From: a virus | Lineage: Duplodnaviria > Caudoviricetes | Reading direction: 5' to 3' (one strand) | Virus record (IMG/VR): IMGVR_UViG_3300031555_004294 | Span: 128,001 to 192,000 of that record | Length of the DNA: 64,000 nt | In this document: in pieces, positions 2,570-52,887 of the stretch | How positions within the stretch are numbered: the first letter of the stretch is position 1 | How the letters are laid out: each line of letters starts with the position of its first letter | Program-made: the position numbers and the translations under genes | Notes under the pieces: generated by a model | The model's input: only the letters and a program-made list of their open reading frames with translations | Told to the model about the DNA's origin: nothing | Database searches by the model: none

Positions 2570-2920
2570 ATGACAAATGATGAAATTGTAAAACACTTTA
2601 TATTTGATTTGGAAATGGAAAGATTTAATAGAACTACAAAAACAATCTTTCTATCATTTTCAAATGTACTTGGATTTAAACTTGTAAAAGAAAGAACTTA
2701 TAAAATTGATGTTGATTTAGTAAGGAAATTTCTAAAAGTTGTTTTAAAAGCTGGATTTACATTTCCTCTAAATGCTAAAACATATGTTTCTGATGATAGA
2801 GAAGAAATAATCTTGGATTTAGAACTCAAAAAAATTTATATTTTGAGAGAAGGAACTATTTGTTGTAAAAATTACATTCCAGAATATGTAGAGGAGTACA
2901 AATTAGAAAATGACGAATGA
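2570..2920 (+). CDS. MTNEE family paralog 1
   Basis: Start moved to MTNDEIVKHFIFDL; ends IPEYVEEY. Confidence 0.8.
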   Translation: MTNDEIVKHFIFDLEMERFNRTTKTIFLSFSNVLGFKLVKERTYKIDVDLVRKFLKVVLKAGFTFPLNAKTYVSDDREEIILDLELKKIYILREGTICCKNYIPEYVEEYKLENDE

Positions 2921-3257
2921 AGAAATTAGAAAAAAATTTTTGTTTGATTTAACAATGGGAAGATTTGAAAGAATTATTACTGACCAAATTATATTTTATG
3001 GACCATATCTTGAAACTTTCCAATTGGCAATGGTGTTAATTGACCTTGGATTTGAAAATGCAGAGTATGAAGATAAACTTAAGCGAAATAATTTCATACT
3101 TCTGGATAGAACAGAAATTCGTATATTTACTGAAACTAAAAGTTTTCACACTTATTGGATACCTAGCAGTATTGGTAATAGCAATCCTATAAATCAACAA
3201 ATACCAGATTATGTAAAAAAATATAAAATAACGGATAGTAGAGTTCTAATTACCTAA
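2910..3257 (+). CDS. MTNEE family paralog 2
   Basis: MTNEEIRKKFLFDL...IPDYVKKY. Confidence 0.85.
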   Translation: MTNEEIRKKFLFDLTMGRFERIITDQIIFYGPYLETFQLAMVLIDLGFENAEYEDKLKRNNFILLDRTEIRIFTETKSFHTYWIPSSIGNSNPINQQIPDYVKKYKITDSRVLIT

Positions 3258-3276
3258 AGGAGTAAGAATTTAGAAA

Positions 3277-3600
3277 ATGACGAATGAAGAAATTAGAAAG
3301 AGATTTGAATTTGACTTAAAAATGGGAAGATTTAAAGTTTCTCCAGATTCAGTACATTTAGGTTTGTTAACATCTAAAAATCAAGATGCATGTAATAGGC
3401 TGTTTAAGTTATTGACTGATATAGGAAAAACACAAATTGGACCTGGTTTTGAAGAAGAATTTGATGGTGTTTATATCTTTTCCTCATTCAAAAATAGATT
3501 TCAGTTGTTAAAATATAATGAAAAGATATTAGCTGAAGGTAAAGCTATTTTTAATGAAATTCCAGATTATATCAAGGAGTACAAAATAAATGACGAATGA
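3277..3600 (+). CDS. MTNEE family paralog 3
   Basis: MTNEEIRKRFEFDL...IPDYIKEY. Confidence 0.85.
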   Translation: MTNEEIRKRFEFDLKMGRFKVSPDSVHLGLLTSKNQDACNRLFKLLTDIGKTQIGPGFEEEFDGVYIFSSFKNRFQLLKYNEKILAEGKAIFNEIPDYIKEYKINDE

Positions 3601-3910
3601 AGAAATTAGAAAAAGGTTTCAATTTGATTTGGAAGTAGGAGTCTTTAAGAAAATTGAATTTGAAACTTATTTTTTAATAAAACGAAAAGACCTATGTTTT
3701 ATCGATTTCTTAATTGATATAGGTTACTTTTTTACATTTTTACCAAGTGCAGATGCATTAATAAATCAATCTATTAGGGAAACAAATGAAGTTTGTATGG
3801 TGCTAAATGAAGCTACTAAAGAAATAAACCCAACACTATGGAGATTTAAAGAATACTTTAATGATGTACCAGATTATATCAAGGAGTACAAAATAAAAAA
3901 TGACGAATGA
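3590..3910 (+). CDS. MTNEE family paralog 4
   Basis: conserved termini, overlapping start/stop. Confidence 0.85.
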   Translation: MTNEEIRKRFQFDLEVGVFKKIEFETYFLIKRKDLCFIDFLIDIGYFFTFLPSADALINQSIRETNEVCMVLNEATKEINPTLWRFKEYFNDVPDYIKEYKIKNDE

Positions 3911-4229
3911 GAATGAAGAAAAAAGATTCCAATTTGATTTGGATCTGGAAATAAAGTACAAAACTAAGTATACTAAGAACCACAAAATAGTATATTTCGT
4001 TTTGGACGATTCTGATTCTTATCCTTTCTTAATAGAATTAAGAAATGTTTTAAAAAGGTTAGGATACAAAAAGAAAGGTGGCTATGTGAAAAATAGCAAC
4101 GCTTTAAAGTTATATCTTAAGACAAGAAGATATGAAGAAGTGTATTCTGCACCAGATTTTAAGTCCATAACTTCACCTAAGAATCGATTTCCAGATTTTA
4201 TTAAGGAGCGTGTTTTAAATGACGAATGA
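3900..4229 (+). CDS. MTNEE family paralog 5
   Basis: conserved termini. Confidence 0.85.
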   Translation: MTNENEEKRFQFDLDLEIKYKTKYTKNHKIVYFVLDDSDSYPFLIELRNVLKRLGYKKKGGYVKNSNALKLYLKTRRYEEVYSAPDFKSITSPKNRFPDFIKERVLNDE

Positions 4230-4533
4230 AGAAATTAGAAAAAGATTTGAATTCGATACAGAATTTTTATTTAAAAATAGCAACTTAGATGAAATGTACT
4301 TTGTTTGTCCTATAAATAAAATAGGAAAATTTTTATATTTTTTAGAACATGATCTTGGATATAAAAGGAAAAATGCCATTTTTCCAAGGGGTTACAGAAT
4401 GAATGTAATTTATTTGGCAGTTTGTACAAAGTCTAAGTGTCTTATTAGATTTGAAGATTACGTAGATGGCTCTATTAGACTAAATCCAGTACCAGAGTAT
4501 ATTAAGGAGTATGAAATAAACTATGACGAATGA
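4219..4533 (+). CDS. MTNEE family paralog 6
   Basis: conserved termini. Confidence 0.85.
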   Translation: MTNEEIRKRFEFDTEFLFKNSNLDEMYFVCPINKIGKFLYFLEHDLGYKRKNAIFPRGYRMNVIYLAVCTKSKCLIRFEDYVDGSIRLNPVPEYIKEYEINYDE

Positions 4534-4852
4534 AGAAATCAGAAAAAGATTTAAATTTGACATTGAAATGGGTGTATTTGAAATAAACAAAAGTATACTT
4601 TGTTACACATTCAATGATAGCACGGAAAGTTGTCTTAAATTAAGAAAACTACTACTTGATATTGGAATGAAAGAATTGGAAAGATTTAGAAAACATAAAG
4701 ATGATGAAATTTGTACGGTACTGTTCTATGTTATAAATCCTGAAAGTTCTGATGATTCATGGAATAATACATTTGATACTTTTCAATATCGTGATGATGT
4801 CTATAGAAATAACAAAATTCCAGATTACGTCAAGGAGTATGTTATAGAATGA
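4523..4852 (+). CDS. MTNEE family paralog 7
   Basis: conserved termini. Confidence 0.85.
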   Translation: MTNEEIRKRFKFDIEMGVFEINKSILCYTFNDSTESCLKLRKLLLDIGMKELERFRKHKDDEICTVLFYVINPESSDDSWNNTFDTFQYRDDVYRNNKIPDYVKEYVIE

Positions 4853-5163
4853 CAAATGAAGAAATTAGAAAGAGATTTAAATTTGACTTAGAAATAGGAA
4901 TGTTCAAAAAAGACTATCCATTTGAAAGTATTACATTTCATGGGTATTATAAAGAAACTGCAAAATTAATAAAATTGCTTATTGATAGTGGCTATGAAGG
5001 GATAATTGCTAATAACTTAGAAAATAAGCATAATGGAGAACTTTATAGAACACAAATAGATGTTTCTAATAAAAAAATTTTAGCAATATATTGGACGTTG
5101 ACAGAAAATTATAATCTTCTTCCAGATTATATCAAGGAGTATGAAATAAACTATGACGAATGA
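4849..5163 (+). CDS. MTNEE family paralog 8
   Basis: conserved termini. Confidence 0.85.
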   Translation: MTNEEIRKRFKFDLEIGMFKKDYPFESITFHGYYKETAKLIKLLIDSGYEGIIANNLENKHNGELYRTQIDVSNKKILAIYWTLTENYNLLPDYIKEYEINYDE

Positions 5164-5467
5164 AGAAATCAGAAAAAGATTTGAATTTGATATGAACATT
5201 GGTCTATTTTTACTAGACTCCAGTAATTTTATTACTGAAAAAACTTTGTTTAAATGCAGTTGGAATAGAAAACTTGCAACAAAGTTCTTAGAAATGCTTA
5301 GTGATAGTGGTTATAGTTTATCTCGGTATTACAAAGATTCAATCATCACCCTCTATGATAATCCTGTTATCGCACTAGATCAGATTAGCAAAATACATTC
5401 AATTATTGAGGATTTTGATGGAACTATATTGAACGAAATACCAGACTATATCAAGGAGTACAAATAG
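5153..5467 (+). CDS. MTNEE family paralog 9
   Basis: conserved termini. Confidence 0.85.
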   Translation: MTNEEIRKRFEFDMNIGLFLLDSSNFITEKTLFKCSWNRKLATKFLEMLSDSGYSLSRYYKDSIITLYDNPVIALDQISKIHSIIEDFDGTILNEIPDYIKEYK

Positions 5468-10782: not shown

Positions 10783-11953
10783 TTGAAAATAGATATTTGT
10801 AATCTGGACAAATTTATAAAGGTTAACAACATACAAGAAGTTACTAACCCTATACGTTTTGATGCAGATTGGTACCCAACTGATAATGGTCTTTTATCAT
10901 ATAGAATTTTTGGTCAAGTTGGTAGTTATGATAGACGTACTTTATTTGGTTACATCGACCTAAAAGGACACTTTTTACACCCATTATTTTATTTGAGACT
11001 CATAAAAATGAATCGTAATTTTGCTAGAGTCATTGATGGTAGTGGCTATTTTAGAATTAACGAAAAAGGTGAGTTAGTTGCTGATAATGAGAATGGAAAT
11101 ACTGGAATAGCTTGGCTTTATAAGAATTTCAAAAATCTTAAGTTTAAAAAATCGGGTTCAGGAGAGCGAGACAGGACTATAGACCTTCTAACTAAACTTG
11201 ATCTTGATGAAATCTTTGTCAGCAAGTGGCTTGTAATTCCTGCCTTTTATCGAGATTCTAATATACAAAAACTCGATCATGGAAGAGTTTCAGAAGATGA
11301 AATCAACCCTATGTATGCAAATTTGATTTCTCTGGCAAGTTCTAAATCAGATTTCGACTTTATGGGATATATTACGGAATCTAGAATTCAAAAACAGCTT
11401 TTAGAAATCTATGATTACTTGACTGGATATATCAAGGGTAAGACTGGACTTCTCAAGAATAGTTTGCTCGGCAAGACTGTGGACTATTCAACTCGCGGTG
11501 TTATCTCAGCAGGTAGAGTCAATTCTAATACATCAGATGAACAATTGGTAAAGTTTACTTATACTGGCATTCCTTTATCTCATTTGTGTAACTTATTCTA
11601 TCCTTTCTTCCAATACGAGATAGCTAGTTTTGCAGAAGAAACCTTTGCATCAGTTAATGAAATTAGGGGTTCTGATGGAAATTATTATCCATTGGTAAAT
11701 CCTATGAGTAAATTTACAACTGAAAAGATAAAAGGGATGATGAACTTATATATTAAGTCACCTGATAATAGACTTGATCCAATCATGGTTCCAATTAGGC
11801 TTAAGAATGGAAGTGTTAAAGAAGTTCCTTTAAATCTCTTCCAAGATGATTTAAAGAGACACTTTACTTTACTGGACTTGATATACATTGTTGCAACTAG
11901 AGTTTGTCTTGACAAACATGTGTATGTAACTCGATTTCCGATTGAAAACTATC
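10783..11953 (+). CDS. rpoC: RNA polymerase beta' N-terminal subunit (probably virion RNAP), exon 1
   Basis: GLLSYRIFG, FGYIDL, VIPAFYR, GKTGLLKNSLLGKTVDYSTRGVIS, TRFP; joins exon 2 in frame (ENY-Q-SIYP), 510 aa total. Confidence 0.92.
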
Positions 11954-12453
11954 GTGTGTCACGTTGATCTATAACTTGAAAGAATCAAGGAAATGATCGA
12001 TATAAGTATACTTATGTTAACTGTAAGTTTGATTGGTGGAATGAAATACGGCAATCAGTATGAAACACCAACATTAATACTCCTACATGCATTAAAAAAT
12101 AGCTAGAATTATTTAATGTGTGAAGCTAGGTGAAGACGTATTCATAGTAATGCGGATGGTTCTATAATATGGTGAGGAACACGAATTTTCTAACGTCCAA
12201 TGTTTTGGGATTAGTAGTATGATAGTGGCGAAAATCCTATTGAATGATGCTTCAATTGAAAATATTGGGAACAGAAAACACCTAAGTTATAGAAATACTA
12301 GAATTTACGGAACGTGAGAAGTTTCTATAAAAAGAAAATAGCTGATACTTTTTATAGAAATGGCAGCAGCCTGTAGTAGCGATGAAGCTTTTGTAATGAA
12401 AGTGGAGTGAAGGGGCATAGTCAATTTTTTGATTGAACTTTTTCTAACGATCA

Positions 12454-12465
12454 AACAATTTATTA
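12454..12465 (+). promoter_or_regulatory. late-type promoter inside intron domain IV
   Basis: AACAATTTATTA followed by AAAGGAG RBS and ATG 12493. Confidence 0.6.
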
Positions 12466-12492
12466 AATACTTTTACAAAGGAGATTAATAAA

Positions 12493-13416
12493 ATGGGTAG
12501 AAAAAGTAAATCACATGAAGATTTTGTTAAAGATGTTATGAATATTTTAGGACCAGAATATCAAGTGCTGGGAAAATATATCAAATGTTCTGAAAAAATA
12601 AAAATGAAACATTTAAAATGTGGATTAGAATATGAAACTGAACCTAGAACTGTAATGCATGGATCAGGATGTCCAATATGCAATACCGATTTTCATATGT
12701 CACATGATGAATTCGTTTCAAAAGTAAATAAAGAGGGAGATAACGAATATGAAGTCCTAACTCCTTATATCAATACAAAAACAAAAGTAACGCTAAAACA
12801 TAAAGTGTGTAATGAAATTTATGAAGTTGCACCTAGAAATTTCTTTCAAGGTAAAAGATGTCCAAAATGTACTAAAGTAAAACGTGTGACAAATGAAGAA
12901 TTTGATCGACGTCTGTTAAACATTTATGGAAATGAATGGACTAGAGTTTCAGAGTTTATGGCAATAAATAAGGAAATTCTAGTTAAACACGAAAATTGTG
13001 GGAACATAATTAAGAATACTCCAAAAGTTATTTTAAGTCAAAGATTTGGATGTAAATATTGTAAGATGACTAGCGGAGAATTTAGAATTAAATCTGTTTT
13101 AGAAAACTTAGATATAAAATTTACCCCACAAAAGAAGTTTGATGATTGTAAAGATCTAGGTTACTTATTTTTTGACTTTTATTTTTGTATTGACAATAAA
13201 GAGTATATCATAGAATATGATGGACGACAACATTTTCTTCCTATTTTTGGTCATAATGATAAAGAACGACAAGAACGTTTAGAATTTACGCAAAAACATG
13301 ATGAGATGAAAAATTTATATTGCGAAAACCATAATATAAATTTGCTGCGTATATCATATGATACTCCCTATCAGAATATTCAATCAATAATTGAAAACTT
13401 CATAAAGAAAAATTGA
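12493..13416 (+). CDS. intron-encoded putative homing endonuclease (3 zinc-ribbon repeats + Vsr/DUF559-like PD-(D/E)xK domain)
   Basis: HxxC...CPxC repeats; FDFY...IEYDGRQH...DEMKN...LLRISY; no RT/YADD motif. Confidence 0.8.
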   Translation: MGRKSKSHEDFVKDVMNILGPEYQVLGKYIKCSEKIKMKHLKCGLEYETEPRTVMHGSGCPICNTDFHMSHDEFVSKVNKEGDNEYEVLTPYINTKTKVTLKHKVCNEIYEVAPRNFFQGKRCPKCTKVKRVTNEEFDRRLLNIYGNEWTRVSEFMAINKEILVKHENCGNIIKNTPKVILSQRFGCKYCKMTSGEFRIKSVLENLDIKFTPQKKFDDCKDLGYLFFDFYFCIDNKEYIIEYDGRQHFLPIFGHNDKERQERLEFTQKHDEMKNLYCENHNINLLRISYDTPYQNIQSIIENFIKKN

Positions 13417-13503
13417 TGGAACGCTGTGTGAGGTGAAAGTCTCACGCACAGTGTGAAGTGGGGGAAAAAATAGAGATAACTTCAAAGTTTTACCTATCAC
13501 TAT

Positions 13504-13865
13504 AATCAATCTATCCAAGCCGTATAAAAATAATGACTACTTACAAGACTCAAAAAATAACAATTGCTAACAAGTATTATGACAATTATCCTGTAGTTAC
13601 TACAGATTTTGATAGTCCTAGTTATGATGAAAACATGAACTATATCGATACCATAATTCCCCATAATACGATGTTGGAAGCCTTGGGTGCAGACTTTGAC
13701 GGAGACACGGTTTCTTTAAGATCTGTCTATTCACAAGAAGCAAACTTAGAATGTGAGAAACTAATAAACTCACCTAAGTATCTTTTAGATGTAACAGGAA
13801 AAACTACTAGAGTTTTGCGTAACGAAGGTATTCAAACTCTTTATACTTTAACAAGAGAAGGTTAA
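13504..13865 (+). CDS. rpoC: RNA polymerase beta' N-terminal subunit, exon 2 (catalytic motif)
   Basis: LGADFDGDT Mg-binding motif; frame continues from exon 1. Confidence 0.92.
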
Positions 13866-15493: not shown

Positions 15494-15575
15494 ATAAAAT
15501 CTCCGTTTTCTAAAATTTTTAAGTACTTGTTTTGTATGGATTTTAATAGAAAAAGGTGTATCAAAATGTATTTTA

Positions 15576-15587
15576 AATACATATTCT
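15576..15587 (+). promoter_or_regulatory. early-type promoter motif
   Basis: AATACATATTCT. Confidence 0.5.
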
Positions 15588-23541: not shown

Positions 23542-23886
23542 GTGAATCCATACTTAAAAAAATTTAAGAGTCTAACAACTTGGATTACTGATGATAGAGT
23601 TGAGAACTTATTAGAGGGAACTTTATATCTAAAAGAAGCTTTCAAATTTATCGAGTTACTTTTAGTGCTTGATGAGAATAATTTTGAGTATGAGCTTGTT
23701 TCTGGATTTAAAGGAAAGACTCATTTTAAAGAAGAACAGAATATGTTCAAGGATATCGTTATAGAAGTGTCTGAACAAGAATTAAGAAATGTAGTTGAGT
23801 TTTTTAACAGTTCTGTAAAGTATAATGAAACTTTTAGCGTACAAGAATTATCAAACACAAATCTAAAGATTCAACTAAGGGACTGA
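23542..23886 (+). CDS. hypothetical protein
   Basis: GTG start with AGGTGA RBS. Confidence 0.65.
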   Translation: MNPYLKKFKSLTTWITDDRVENLLEGTLYLKEAFKFIELLLVLDENNFEYELVSGFKGKTHFKEEQNMFKDIVIEVSEQELRNVVEFFNSSVKYNETFSVQELSNTNLKIQLRD

Positions 23887-23908
23887 AATATGTCCCTTAG
23901 TTGATTTT
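23871..23908 (+). terminator. intrinsic terminator
   Basis: TCAACTAAGGGAC/GTCCCTTAGTTGA. Confidence 0.75.
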
Positions 23909-23945
23909 CTATAAACAAGTGTAACGAATTTTAAACTAAATTTTA

Positions 23946-23957
23946 AATATATATTCT
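23946..23957 (+). promoter_or_regulatory. early-type promoter motif
   Basis: AATATATATTCT. Confidence 0.6.
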
Positions 23958-23962
23958 GATTG

Positions 23963-24420
23963 TGTAAGAAGGAGAATATATGGTGGTGCACAAGAAGTGA
24001 CGATTATATTCTTTCTGTATGTTTGCAAGATACAGAGAAGACGAAGGCCAAGTCAACCATTGCAATTCTTACATATCATAGAGATAGGTTGGTCTTACCT
24101 TGGATCCAACCAAACAATCTTACCTAAAAAGCCCTAAAGAACTCGTAACGTGGAATTACTGAGATGTATGATAAAGGCGGCCAAGATGTACCACGAGAGT
24201 TGTTGCTCCAAATAATACAACCACATCAGGCTATGAGTTTGCTCTAGAGAGCAGTAGATTAGTTTATGCTAGACCATCCCATCCTCCTGCCCTAGCCAAC
24301 TAATCGAGAACGGTAAGCTCTTCTTTTCAAAAGAAGTTGAAGAAAACTCAAAATTCATAATGGTTAAAACGTTATGAGACATAAAAAAGAGAAGTGTGGG
24401 ATGGCACTTCTTTTTTTTTT
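23963..24420 (+). ncRNA. candidate large structured non-coding RNA, family not recognised
   Basis: GC-richer than its surroundings, no long ORF, bounded by promoter and terminator, many complementary segments. Confidence 0.6.
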
Positions 24421-24421
24421 T
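24383..24421 (+). terminator. intrinsic terminator with loop TGGGATGG
   Basis: AGAAGTG/CACTTCT stem and long U-tract. Confidence 0.75.
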
Positions 24422-24463
24422 ACAAGATCACATAATTTCAATTCTAAGGAGACAAAAAAGAAA

Positions 24464-26203
24464 ATGGGACAGGCAAACATAGATCAACTTTTTTTGAACT
24501 CAAATATCATAGATGAAGCAGAAACAAAAGAAAAAATTAAGTCTACACTAGCTAAAATAGCGAGAGAAGTTAGTAAGTCTTTAGGTCCATACGGTTCAAC
24601 TACTATCATTGAAGATAGACTTGGTGACCATTATATGACCAAGGATGGGTATACAATCCTTAAGGCTATGAACTACAACTACGATATTTCTCGTACAGTT
24701 CTAGATATAGTTAAGAAGATTTCTAAAGCATTGGTTAGAACTGTCGGTGATGGTTCTACATCTTCTGTAGTCATTGCCAATGAATTATTTGATTCAATTA
24801 CTTCAATCTCAGATAACTTACAGTTAGCTCCTCAAGATATTCTTGAAATTTTCAATGTTTTAGCTGAGAACTTTGAAGCTATGATTTTGAATGAAGCAAC
24901 ACAAATTACAGATGAAAACTTTGATGAAACTATCACAAAGATTGCAACTATTTCTTGTAACAACAATCAAGAATCTGGTAAGCTATTTTGTGATATTTTC
25001 CGAACCATTGGTAAGTATGGTTTTATCAACTTAGAGAATGGTAAGTCTAGTAAGGACTATTTTGAGAAAGTACAGGGTATTGAAGTTCCTAGAGGATGGA
25101 TCAATGCTCGTATGGCAAACCAAAATGACAGAATTTCAACAGAATATGAAAATGCACTTGTGTTCATGATGAATGATATTATGTCTGATGACGAAATTGA
25201 TTTCATTGCAAGTGTTATGGACAATGTATGTATTAAGCAGAATGTTCCTCTTATCATAGTAGCAACTAACTATACTTCTTCTGTTAAATCGTTCTTTGAT
25301 GCAAATCTTCAGAAGAATAAGCATCTTCCTGTAGTTGCTATCGACATTGACGCATCTACTAAAAATGGTAAAGATAGATTTGAAGATTTAGCATTAGCTC
25401 TTGGTTGTCATTATTATGACAAGTACAATGGAATGGAAAATCTTAATGAATTCTCTATCAGAGATTTAGGAAAATGTAAGAGATTTAAGGGAGATGACTT
25501 ACGTTCCACTTTCATTGATGGTGAAGGTTATGTTTCTAACGCAGAAAGACTTCAGGAACACATAAAAAATCTTGAAACTGAATATGAAAGACTTCAGCAT
25601 ATGGATGAAATTCACGATAACCGTGAAAAGGATCTCTTCCAAATTAAGAAACGTATTGCTACTTTAACATCCTCTATGGCAACTCTTTATGTTGGTGGTG
25701 GTTCTGAAATGGAACGTACTACTAGAAAGTTCTTAATGGAAGACGCTGTTTATGCATGTCGTTCTTCTATAGAAAACGGATATGTAGTTGGAGGTAACTT
25801 AATTCTTCCTAAGATTTTGGTAAAACATGAAGATGTTATTGTTGAAAATACTGTAAGAGATGAACGCTTAAAGTATTTGACTAACATCTACGAGAATGAT
25901 GAAGATTTTATGTCAGCAATTATGTATATCGTTGAAAATATACTTTCGGCTTTCAAACAGTCATTTATGACCGTTTTAAGAAATGCACACATTAGTAATG
26001 AAAATGCTGCAAAGATCATCAAAACTTGTATTGATGAAGATAAGATTTACAATGTGAAATTGAGAAGATATGAGAACGATAATGAGACCAATGTAATTAA
26101 CTCGGCTGAAACTGACATAGAAATCATCAAGGCTAGTTTCTCTATCATTGGTTTATTGGCAACTAGCAATCAGTTTATTACTAGCAATCCTGTAAGCAGA
26201 TAA
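24464..26203 (+). CDS. groEL: phage chaperonin, GroEL-like
   Basis: SLGPYG, TKDGYT, VGDGSTS, DRFEDLA, GYVVGG; start moved to MGQAN with AAGGAG RBS. Confidence 0.9.
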   Translation: MGQANIDQLFLNSNIIDEAETKEKIKSTLAKIAREVSKSLGPYGSTTIIEDRLGDHYMTKDGYTILKAMNYNYDISRTVLDIVKKISKALVRTVGDGSTSSVVIANELFDSITSISDNLQLAPQDILEIFNVLAENFEAMILNEATQITDENFDETITKIATISCNNNQESGKLFCDIFRTIGKYGFINLENGKSSKDYFEKVQGIEVPRGWINARMANQNDRISTEYENALVFMMNDIMSDDEIDFIASVMDNVCIKQNVPLIIVATNYTSSVKSFFDANLQKNKHLPVVAIDIDASTKNGKDRFEDLALALGCHYYDKYNGMENLNEFSIRDLGKCKRFKGDDLRSTFIDGEGYVSNAERLQEHIKNLETEYERLQHMDEIHDNREKDLFQIKKRIATLTSSMATLYVGGGSEMERTTRKFLMEDAVYACRSSIENGYVVGGNLILPKILVKHEDVIVENTVRDERLKYLTNIYENDEDFMSAIMYIVENILSAFKQSFMTVLRNAHISNENAAKIIKTCIDEDKIYNVKLRRYENDNETNVINSAETDIEIIKASFSIIGLLATSNQFITSNPVSR

Positions 26204-26244: not shown

Positions 26245-26266
26245 ACTTGTAACAATTTTAGTTTTA

Positions 26267-26278
26267 AATATATATTCT
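26267..26278 (+). promoter_or_regulatory. early-type promoter motif
   Basis: AATATATATTCT. Confidence 0.6.
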
Positions 26279-26321: not shown

Positions 26322-26939
26322 TTGAAAGAGCTTACTAAAAAACAACTATTTGATTTACAGATCAACTATACAAAATATATTATCGAATATGGCGATAAAT
26401 GGTGGGAAGAAAAAGAAAATTGGATAAGCATTATAACTTGGGATAACTTATCCGAAGATTTCATAAGGGAATTTCAAGATTATTTAGACTTTTGCGTCAT
26501 TCCTGCAACTCAAGTTTTATCCGAAGATTTCATAAGGGAATTTCAAGATAAACTTGATTGGAATTCAGTATCAATAAACCAAGATCTATCCGAAGATTTC
26601 ATAAGGGAATTTCAAGATAAAATTTATTGGATTGGAATATCTGGCCATAAAAGAGATTTATCAGAAGATTTTATAGAAGAATTCCAAGATAAAGTTAGCT
26701 GGAGTTTGATCTCAATATATCAGAAATTATCGTGTGATTTTATAAGAAAGTTTCAAGACAAAGTTTACTGGACTTCAATTTTTAATCATCAAGAAAATTT
26801 ATCTGATGATTTCATATTGGAATTCCAAGATAAAATAAGTTGGAATAACTTATGTTGGAACAATCCATCCAAATGTAATATTTTTAAAAAATGGAGGAAG
26901 TTAATAGATGATAGCACTAACCAAACAACAGGAGTTTGA
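26322..26939 (+). CDS. tryptophan-repeat protein (LTKxQxFDL family)
   Basis: 23-aa LSEDFIREFQDKxxW repeats. Confidence 0.85.
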   Translation: MKELTKKQLFDLQINYTKYIIEYGDKWWEEKENWISIITWDNLSEDFIREFQDYLDFCVIPATQVLSEDFIREFQDKLDWNSVSINQDLSEDFIREFQDKIYWIGISGHKRDLSEDFIEEFQDKVSWSLISIYQKLSCDFIRKFQDKVYWTSIFNHQENLSDDFILEFQDKISWNNLCWNNPSKCNIFKKWRKLIDDSTNQTTGV

Positions 26940-51285: not shown

Positions 51286-52074
51286 ATGGTGAACTTAGTT
51301 TTGTCTAGAACTGTTAATGAAACAGAAAAGAAATATCTGCTATCTTTAAAACGATCAGATATTACTACAGAACTTTTAAAAGAGCTATTTGCAGTTAGTA
51401 AAAACAATCCAAAATCAAAGTTTGAGCCAACTGATATTTTACAGCTAAATGCTAAAGAATACTATAATGAGAAACTAGTTACAACTACTGTTGGTCGCTT
51501 CATAGTAAATAAATGTCTTCTAGAACCTAAAATTATTGAGTTGATTGGTTACCAAGATATCGTAATTACCAAAAAAACTATGAAAAAATTAGACCAAAAA
51601 ATCATAGACGAATGCTTATTAACTGAGAAAATTACTATGACTGAAATGCATGACTATTTCGACCAATGTAACTGGTTGGCATATAGTTGTACTTATTTTA
51701 TAGTACCTTCATTGGATACTAAGATGTTCAAAGTTGATAAAGACATTTTAGGCATGAAAGAAAAATTGATTGAGGAAAATAAAGAAGCAGTTCAAAATAA
51801 TGATGTTGGCGTTATTTATAACATTGAACAACAACTGTTAACAGCTTCTAAAGAAAAAGTAAAGGACATTCCTGGCTATCAAATCTATGCATCTGGTGCT
51901 AGAGGTAGTTTTGATAACAATTATAAGAACAGTTGCCTTTTAAGGGGTAGTGTAATGAACTTTACTAATCCTTCAGAATTCCAATCCTCAATGGCTTCAC
52001 TGGTAGAAGGAATTCCTAAAGAAGATTTCCACATCTATGCAAATATCTTAACTGCAGGTACTTATGCACGTGCT
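51286..52074 (+). CDS. rpoC: RNA polymerase beta' C-terminal subunit (probably virion RNAP), exon 1; true start may be TTG 51301
   Basis: TTVGRFIVN, SGARG, SLVEG, TYARA. Confidence 0.88.
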
Positions 52075-52292
52075 AAACTAGTGATTCTTGGCACGTAAAT
52101 TCTTTAATTGCTGGAAGAGTAGAAAATACTTAATCAGCATCTCATAAAAATTTTTATGAGTTCAACGACTATATAGAACTTAAATGAGTTCGAAATGAGA
52201 ATTACTAGTTTTTAGTAAAGATATAGTCTTATCTTTAGAGAGATCTAAAGTTATAAAGGATAGGCTTAATGAACCTATACAAAAATTTTATG
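52075..52292 (+). ncRNA. group I intron (IA-like), 218 nt, no ORF
   Basis: P1 CGTGCT/GGCACG with U-G at splice site; P10 GTGATTCTT/AAGAACAC; core AATTGCTGGAA, AATCAGCA, GTTCAACGACTA, AAGATATAGTC; terminal G. Confidence 0.92.
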
Positions 52293-52662
52293 AAGAACAC
52301 TGAGGTTGGTGGTTACTTAGTTAAGCAATCTCGTTCAGGCTATCAACATCTAATGTTAGATGAAAAGGATAGTGATTGTGGTACTACAAAGTATTTAGAG
52401 ATAGTTTTAACAGACAATAACAAAGGTCTGTTTATGCTAAGATGGATTAAAGGAGACGATGGTAAATTAGTTCTTCTTGATGCTGATAATGTTAATCAGT
52501 ATGTAGGAAAGAAAGTAAAATTACGTTCTCCTTTGTATTGTACAAGTGATAAGATTTGCAGTAAATGTGCTGGAGAACTCTATTACAGGCTCAACATGAA
52601 TAATGTTGGTCTAGTTGCTGACCGTATCGCAAGTACCATCATGCAGAAATCTATGAAACAGT
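52293..52662 (+). CDS. rpoC: RNA polymerase beta' C-terminal subunit, exon 2
   Basis: KNTEVGGYLVK (bridge helix), DCGT, LRSPLYC, ICSKCAG. Confidence 0.9.
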
Positions 52663-52887
52663 TAAAATCGTATAGCTGTTTACAAATTCTTAAGAATTGC
52701 TGGAAGAGTCATAATGACAAATCAGCAGCCTAATTAAGTTAGGTTCAACGACTAACATACTACAGGAATCTGTAGTTTGTATAAGAACATCTACTTTAAA
52801 GCGAGAAAAAGTAGTAAAGATATAGTCTGAACTTCTATGAAAATAGAAGAAAATGTTGTGTCTAATAAACACACTTAAACATAATTG
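52663..52887 (+). ncRNA. group I intron (IA-like), 225 nt, no ORF
   Basis: P1 AAACAGT/GCTGTTT with U-G; same P/Q/R/S core motifs; terminal G; splicing gives MKQ-F-HDS. Confidence 0.92.

Follow-up and report, generated by a model that had tools for sequence, protein, structure and literature searches.

The approximately 455 nt that separate an early promoter motif from a strong intrinsic terminator, and that lie just ahead of the chaperonin gene in an AR9-like jumbo phage, are probably a lineage-specific gene for a non-coding RNA, since they come with a promoter and a terminator of their own and with no recognisable protein. In the reading favoured here, to which we assign a probability of roughly 0.55, this element is an independent early transcription unit that yields a non-coding RNA of ~455 nt and that was recently acquired as a moron-like insertion. 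The source is a virus record of 299,070 bp in IMG/VR with a GC content of 31%. The window denotes the whole 64,000-nt stretch of DNA that was analysed (positions 128001-192000 of the record), and coordinates refer to the window unless they are given as genome positions or belong to another record. The features on which the argument draws are as follows.

23871-23904, + strand: hairpin overlapping the stop codon of the upstream gene for a 114-aa protein (23542-23886), from a scan for terminator-like structures
23918-24440, unstranded: approximate extent of the lineage-specific insertion (~520 bases), from comparison of the flanks with the relatives L137, L138, L005, and L006
23945-23957, + strand: AR9-type early (virion RNA polymerase) promoter motif AAATATATATTCT, by motif match
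23964, + strand: predicted transcription start, a G located 6 nt past the motif, from the AR9 rule and the equal spacing at other copies of the motif
23964-24072, + strand: predicted 5' domain, a closing stem GUAAGAA/UUCUUAC around two hairpins (z = -2.9)
23969-24000, + strand: putative ribosome-binding site AAGGAG and 6-codon mini-ORF MVVHKK (ATG at 23980 to TGA at 23998-24000), as read from the letters
24087-24111, + strand: predicted hairpin H1, GGUUGGUCU / GGA-CCAACC (pair probability 0.97-0.99; z = -2.6)
24119-24317, + strand: GC-rich core closed by CUUACC/GGUAAG, from predicted fold and GC content, with a poorly defined central arm
24257-24305, + strand: predicted hairpin H4, a 13-bp interrupted stem (pair probability 0.99-1.00; z = -5.2)
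24319-24377, + strand: two small predicted AU-rich hairpins (24319-24343 and 24355-24377; z = -2.4)
24383-24421, + strand: predicted intrinsic terminator with a 15-bp stem and UGGGAUGG in its loop, from fold and terminator scan
24464-26203, + strand: chaperonin (GroEL-like) gene, from Pfam, PHROG, and identity to AR9 GroEL, with ribosome-binding site AAGGAGA at 24446-24452

The phage and its chaperonin locus

The gene 3' of the element encodes a phage chaperonin (Pfam Cpn60_TCP1, 1.7e-27; PHROG chaperonin groEL, 4.7e-114), and the protein is 44% identical to GroEL of the Bacillus phages AR9 and PBS1. The order of baseplate wedge gene, large hypothetical gene, small ORF, gene for a protein of ~110 aa, and GroEL is shared with AR9 and therefore places the phage among the AR9-like jumbo phages, and the DNA runs that bear the locus are animal faecal metagenomes. 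Judged by sequence comparison, the phage is an uncultured AR9/PBS1-like jumbo phage from the animal gut. Two other regions of the window deserve mention in their own right. A group II intron occupies 12016-13503 (domains 1-4 at 12016-12166 and domain 5/6 at 13419-13503), lies between the ORFs 10783-11967 and 13533-13865, and contains a 307-aa ORF (12493-13416). At 2910-5467, eight overlapping ORFs of ~105 aa are arranged in tandem; two of these were compared and are paralogs with identical N-termini (MTNEEIRKRF) and 36% identity (E = 6e-11).

A lineage-specific insertion upstream of the chaperonin gene

Comparison of the flanks indicates that the element is a lineage-specific insertion. The gap between the gene for the 114-aa protein and the chaperonin gene measures 577 nt in this phage versus 56-88 nt in L137, L138, L005, and L006. 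Likeness to relatives ends after TTTTCTATAAA and returns near the chaperonin ribosome-binding site, and the hairpin that overlaps the stop codon of the upstream gene (23871-23904), which is also found in L137, L138, L005, and L006 and is thus kept in relatives, forms the left edge of the common sequence. Five close relatives encode chaperonins that are 84-85% identical; in four of the five the gap is 83-88 nt, and the fifth (L004) carries an unrelated insert of ~300 nt. In two still closer relatives, with 76-77% identity of the 114-aa protein, the gap is 56 and 68 nt. Across about 60 distinct chaperonin loci drawn from IMG/VR and metagenomes the gap is at most 160 nt in all but four (41 nt in AR9), and the element is absent upstream of the chaperonin in about 60 related loci. 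An independent ENA assembly and three DNA runs carry the element with an identical sequence, which argues that it is not an assembly artefact, and all copies found are identical or one base apart.

The spot upstream of the chaperonin gene seems, from the loci compared, to be an insertion hot spot. The insert in L004 (IMGVR_UViG_3300031555_004271, 2685-2975) is single-copy, has long hairpins (z = -5.9) and its own terminator, and shows no match to the early promoter. As a candidate relative of the element it was rejected: it shares GTGGGATGGC with the terminator loop, a match judged to be due to chance, and is otherwise unrelated. In Listeria phage LPJP1, an IS607 transposase is found at the equivalent place. 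In the distant relative L079 (IMGVR_UViG_3300035034_000623), ~740 nt 5' of the chaperonin gene (703-1443) contain no ORF that reaches 30 aa under genetic code 11; this region is coding-like yet is not opened by reading TAG as Q or TGA as W and is possibly a decayed gene region.

Transcription signals

The motif AAATATATATTCT at 23945-23957 matches the phage's own early motif at 13 of 13 positions and the AR9 early consensus at 12 of 13, in support of the early promoter that an earlier note on this DNA, made from the letters without database searches, had placed at 23946. The AR9 consensus, AAATATATATTAT-(6N)-G+1, was defined experimentally and is used by the injected virion RNA polymerase (PMC5312081). 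The stretch AAATATATATTCT-GATTGT-G, which spans 23945-23964, fits this layout of motif, six nucleotides, and G+1, and G23964 is accordingly spaced as at the other copies of the motif. With at most one mismatch, the motif occurs 25 times in the genome, mostly 20-60 nt ahead of a ribosome-binding site and start codon. One other copy, at genome position 80398, lies directly 5' of the genes for tRNA-Leu, tRNA-Met, and tRNA-Lys; early promoters in this phage therefore make stable RNAs. Within the window, further copies are present at 26266-26278 and 15575-15587, the former directly after the chaperonin gene, where it drives a 205-aa ORF at 26322. Several copies in the genome precede long ORF-free leaders (e.g., genome positions 67954 and 292830), and other RNAs may hide there.

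The putative ribosome-binding site AAGGAG is separated from the ATG at 23980 by 5 nt, and the leader is similar to those of other early genes in the phage. The 5' end of the element hence has the appearance of an ordinary early gene start, and a decayed gene would fit this appearance too. At the 3' end, the predicted hairpin has an energy of -16 kcal/mol, is followed by a U run, and has a z of -6.2, so that the terminator claimed by the earlier note for 24383-24421 is confirmed by the predicted fold as a strong intrinsic one. The polymerases of phage AR9 terminate efficiently at such intrinsic terminators. Because an A-run lies 5' and a U-run 3' of the stem, the structure is terminator-like on the opposite strand too.

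Coding capacity, base composition, and occurrence in RNA

The ~455 nt between promoter and terminator appear to be without recognisable coding signal. On the + strand of the element there is no ORF longer than 55 aa, and stop-free frames extend to at most 65 aa on the + strand and 52 aa on the - strand. Nine stop-free frames were compared with Pfam and PHROGs and gave no match, and a phmmer search with the 65-aa frame among 1.84 billion protein representatives found no relative.

The base composition of the element is anomalous. The GC content of its core is 0.42-0.43 versus 0.31 for the genome, at the 99th percentile (top 1%) of 200-nt genome windows. The genome contains 21 GC-rich islands, 18 of them inside long ORFs; those free of ORFs are the element itself and two islands that hold nine tRNA genes (genome positions 78765-80765, about 47-49 kb before the window), with no others.

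A gut metatranscriptome from another study (run X8) contained one contig of 221 nt that equals 24094-24314 with one mismatch and whose span coincides with the predicted core at 24087-24317; no contig from this run fell on the flanking gene for the 114-aa protein or on the chaperonin gene within the 1.5 kb compared. This RNA-level support is a weak hint, as it consists of one low-depth contig that shows no strand, ends, or level and that could stem from DNA carry-over or GC bias; the parts of the element without cover in X8, and the small share of words, are evidence in neither direction. The discrete non-coding transcription unit that the earlier note had suggested is thus upheld at the level of sequence, where a unit without coding capacity extends from promoter to terminator, and is weakly hinted at by that one contig at the level of RNA.

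Predicted structure

Folds were computed as minimum-energy structures with pair probabilities, z values are relative to shuffled sequences, and local windows were chosen around predicted hairpins. With this choice of windows as a caveat, the local modules (5' domain, H1, and H4) are clearly non-random in the models. The predicted H4 hairpin stands out foremost: its z of -5.2 was matched by none of 200 shuffles, and its stem closes a C-rich loop of 19 nt (24273-24291, ACCAUCCCAUCCUCCUGCC) with an anti-Shine-Dalgarno-like CCUCCU. One hairpin of the 5' domain is predicted to bury the ribosome-binding site and the AUG, and the central arm of the core (24138-24241) has a z of 0.06.

Beyond the individual hairpins, neither the modelled global structure nor the number of complementary words exceeds chance. 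The whole element has a z of -2.8, which becomes -1.7 when the terminator is left out, as against a mean z of -0.8 (sd 1.5) for random 417-nt windows of the same genome, of which 5 of 23 were at least as low as the element. The + strand of the element folds better than the - strand, with z values of -1.4 and -0.2, respectively, for the core (24085-24320). With the terminator left out, perfect complementary words of 6, 7, and 8 nt gave p = 0.05, 0.15, and 0.44 relative to dinucleotide shuffles. The complementary words listed in the earlier note were all found where it had placed them or within one base; the count of these pairings does not exceed that in shuffles, however, and two of them (TATCATA/TATGATA and TGAGTTT/AAACTCA) are absent from the minimum-energy fold. 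The two repeats that it had listed, TCTTACCT and GGCCAAG, likewise exist but correspond to chance expectation for 458 nt. Caution is warranted with lists of complementary words in an AT-rich sequence of 450 nt, which are mostly due to chance.

Searches for RNA families and homologs

A scan of Rfam and the collection of homologs had been proposed as checks on the element; Rfam was scanned, and homologs were sought. At the gathering threshold, the covariance models of Rfam 15 (including ROOL, GOLLD, RNAIII, T-box, riboswitches, group I and II introns, tmRNA, 6S, and RNase P) gave no hit; with permissive filters and E <=10 over 23800-24520, the best matches had 22 bits or less and E of at least 0.06, involved hairpins alone, and pointed to no family. 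As a positive control, the sensitive mode recovered two small group I introns in the window (52037-52250 and 52603-52849) at 57.1 and 56.3 bits, the threshold being 50. The sensitivity of this mode is therefore adequate; since the fast gathering scan of the whole window missed both introns, a fast scan without hits does not prove that a family is absent from this genome. Group I intron identity was ruled out for the element after this control on the phage's real introns, and ARAGORN detected no tRNA or tmRNA in the element.

By blastn, no homolog was found in INPHARED, in the whole records of five close relatives, in AR9 and LPJP1, or in 37 further IMG/VR records, the scope of BLAST among related phages being 44 records. 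Searches by nhmmer and blastn of 40 metagenome chaperonin loci also returned no homolog, as did a covariance model of the core that was run on 25 records; its sole match, of 12 bits in AR9, lies inside nrdF and was rejected. Applied with filters off to the loci with large gaps, the core model returned noise. Pattern scans of IMG/VR and GTDB genomes were equally unproductive: 18/19-mers of the C-rich loop gave chance matches only, located in coding sequences of unrelated viruses and of bacteria with high GC, and three other 20-mers of the core gave nothing. Since BLAST, the covariance model, Rfam, and the pattern scans all failed to yield a homolog, conservation and covariation give no sign of selection on the RNA.

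ROOL and GOLLD are Rfam families of large non-coding RNAs that are often associated with phages. The element resembles them in its size, which is large among the non-coding RNAs of bacteria and phages, and in occurring in a phage that also encodes tRNAs; it differs from them in that it matches no covariance model, is shorter, is not conserved in the genomes searched, and has an unexceptional global fold. The proposal that it is a multi-kissing-loop RNA in the style of ROOL or GOLLD was not borne out, with no Rfam family near it, this unexceptional fold, and one marginal loop-loop match only. By these comparisons, the element belongs to no known RNA family and is not a conserved regulator of the chaperonin.

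Alternative explanations

A serious rival, considered here to be somewhat unlikely, is a decayed gene cassette. The element would then be a transcribed relic of an early gene (promoter, ribosome-binding site, ATG, ORF, and terminator) in which the frame was destroyed or replaced, and the RNA would be functionless. A leader like those of other early genes, with a well-spaced ribosome-binding site and ATG and a stop after six codons, is what such a history would leave, and the orphan status of the element without conservation, its global fold at background level, and the ~740 nt without ORFs that L079 carries at the same site are compatible with it. However, at least four frameshifts would be needed to join the frames between 23980 and 24380, and no frame has any protein similarity. 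Decay in a phage of 31% GC should not leave an island of 0.43 GC, the other ORF-free GC-rich islands being all tRNA genes, and the sequence is identical across several samples.

The possibility that the element is a cis-acting leader or attenuator is judged unlikely. Here, the C-rich loop would pair with the terminator as it is being transcribed, at its loop and 5' arm, hinder formation of the hairpin, and let the polymerase into the chaperonin gene. The exact complementarity of the H4 loop word CCATCCCA (24274-24281) to TGGGATGG in the terminator loop (24397-24404), to which the earlier note had drawn attention, is real, although its above-chance status is marginal, with a perfect 8-nt complement to the terminator loop arising in only 2.1% of shuffles. 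It can be extended to 24274-24288 and 24390-24404, where 13 of 15 positions pair (12 Watson-Crick and 1 G-U), and the phage genome holds no extended complement of the C-rich loop besides its own terminator. The extended duplex has a calculated energy of -18.5 kcal/mol, comparable to the -16 kcal/mol of the terminator hairpin; however, 11% of shuffles attain this energy, and imposing the pairing on the fold costs 9 kcal/mol relative to the minimum. A contact between the two loops is possible in these models. The insertion leaves 43 nt between a strong terminator and the chaperonin start, and neither this spacer nor the short gaps of relatives contain an AR9-type late promoter (AACA-N6-TA/G, a motif 2.8-fold enriched upstream of this phage's genes). 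Chaperonin expression may therefore need read-through, and for this reason the attenuator keeps some weight.

The element shares with attenuators and leader RNAs a promoter-proximal mini-ORF, an intrinsic terminator 5' of a gene, and a possible alternative pairing of that terminator. Unlike them, it is not conserved with the chaperonin gene (about 60 related loci are without it) and shows no aptamer or T-box signature, with no riboswitch, T-box, or leader family found in Rfam; its mini-ORF lies 380 nt from the terminator; and the temporal class of its promoter, which is early, differs from that expected for the chaperonin, a late gene in AR9. The lack of conservation and the different temporal class are the grounds on which the attenuator is disfavoured. 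As a conserved mechanism, the attenuator proposed in the earlier note is thus unlikely, given an element that is absent from about 60 loci, that is preceded by an early promoter, and in which no sensor element was found; in this one phage it may still operate, since the insertion sets a strong terminator immediately before the chaperonin gene.

It is very unlikely that the element is the mRNA of a micro-peptide, whether the 6-residue MVVHKK or a coupled 46-aa ORF that begins at GTG 23997 and overlaps the stop of the mini-ORF. A strong ribosome-binding site 5 nt ahead of the ATG, and a GTGA that overlaps the stop as in translational coupling, would suit such an mRNA. However, the frame has no homolog among the 1.84 billion protein representatives and no family hits, a membrane helix would need more than its hydrophobic stretch of only about 9 residues, the predicted 5' hairpin holds both the ribosome-binding site and the AUG in paired form, and ~280 nt of GC-rich downstream RNA would be left unexplained.

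That the RNA serves as an antisense weapon, with segments complementary to mRNAs of a competing phage, is highly improbable. Over 24092-24114, the element agrees at 23 of 23 positions with an AAA ATPase gene in three related phages of 43% GC, and over 24303-24325 it agrees at 21 of 23 positions with another ORF in the same three (at 12190-12212 and 90065-90087 in IMGVR_UViG_3300044843_000700, an unrelated phage of 122 kb), both matches placing the RNA antisense to the foreign mRNA. However, three further core 20-mers found nothing and the 18/19-mers of the C-rich loop chance matches only, short matches among 50,697 cultured-phage records do not exceed chance, the one 20-mer hit is near expectation for so large a collection, and the different GC content suggests a different host. 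The two matches are probably coincidental.

Comparison with morons and phage-encoded RNAs

The favoured reading, an early non-coding RNA gene acquired as a moron-like insertion, can be compared with known systems. Morons are cassettes of promoter, gene, and terminator that lie between genes adjacent in relatives, a concept that comes from the lambdoid phages HK97 and HK022. The element is similar to a moron in its position between genes that are adjacent in AR9 and about 60 relatives, in its own apparent promoter and terminator motifs, and in its deviating base composition (0.42-0.43 GC in the core versus 0.31). It differs in that its cargo is apparently RNA only and in that its promoter is the phage's own early type for the virion polymerase, not a host-type promoter.

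Phage T4 makes stable RNAs C and D. Stand-alone non-coding RNAs have also been mapped by RNA-seq in the jumbo phages PA5oct (PMC7318152), phiKZ (PMC8244752), and 201phi2-1 (PMC11512511). The element is like these RNAs and those of T4 in being phage-encoded, bounded by promoter and terminator, ORF-free, and lineage-specific, most of them having no assigned function; it differs in its greater size relative to typical small RNAs and in that its phage is AR9-like, and a relation in sequence or structure would not be expected.

Proposed mode of action and implications

We infer the stability and function of the RNA, and its mode of action as a whole, from the features described above. The injected virion RNA polymerase would start at G23964 and halt at the terminator near 24421, and the terminator would shield the late chaperonin gene from early transcription. 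The product would be a chain of hairpins and not a compact ROOL-like fold, with H4 as its most distinctive part, displaying the 19-nt C-rich, anti-Shine-Dalgarno-like loop. C-rich loops of Firmicute regulatory RNAs pair with ribosome-binding-site sequences; RNAIII of S. aureus (514 nt, with a small ORF) and RsaE/RoxS are Firmicute RNAs that act on ribosome-binding sites via C-rich hairpin loops. The element resembles RNAIII and RsaE in its multiple predicted hairpins, similar size, CCUCC-like C-rich loop, short 5' ORF, and 3' terminator hairpin, and differs from them in that it has no Rfam match at E <=10 and a single C-rich loop. The likeliest action would be base pairing of the H4 loop with G-rich or ribosome-binding-site sequences in host or phage mRNAs, and the complementarity of this loop to the element's own terminator loop would be incidental or auxiliary. 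When the C-rich loop was compared with the start regions of the phage, no target stood out: the best duplex had a calculated energy of -23 kcal/mol, which lies within the range of shuffled loops (matched by 4% of them, p = 0.04), and the chaperonin start region ranked 40th of 357 as a partner.

A more specific proposal, regarded here as quite unlikely, is that of a new lineage-specific early regulatory RNA of a uracil-DNA-type (AR9-like) jumbo phage in which the C-rich loop of H4 is functional. The loop would either kiss the element's own terminator loop and tune read-through from the early promoter into the late chaperonin gene, or silence ribosome-binding regions of mRNAs of the host or of competing phages, and the two antisense matches to the 122-kb phage would be the first candidate targets.

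If functional, the element would represent a moron whose cargo is RNA only, carried by an AR9-like jumbo phage and transcribed during the first minutes of infection by the polymerase injected from the virion. To the best of our knowledge, regulatory RNAs are essentially uncharacterised for AR9-like phages at that early stage. The element is a single-lineage orphan, and its main value, once a host is at hand, would be that of a concrete candidate for RNA-seq.
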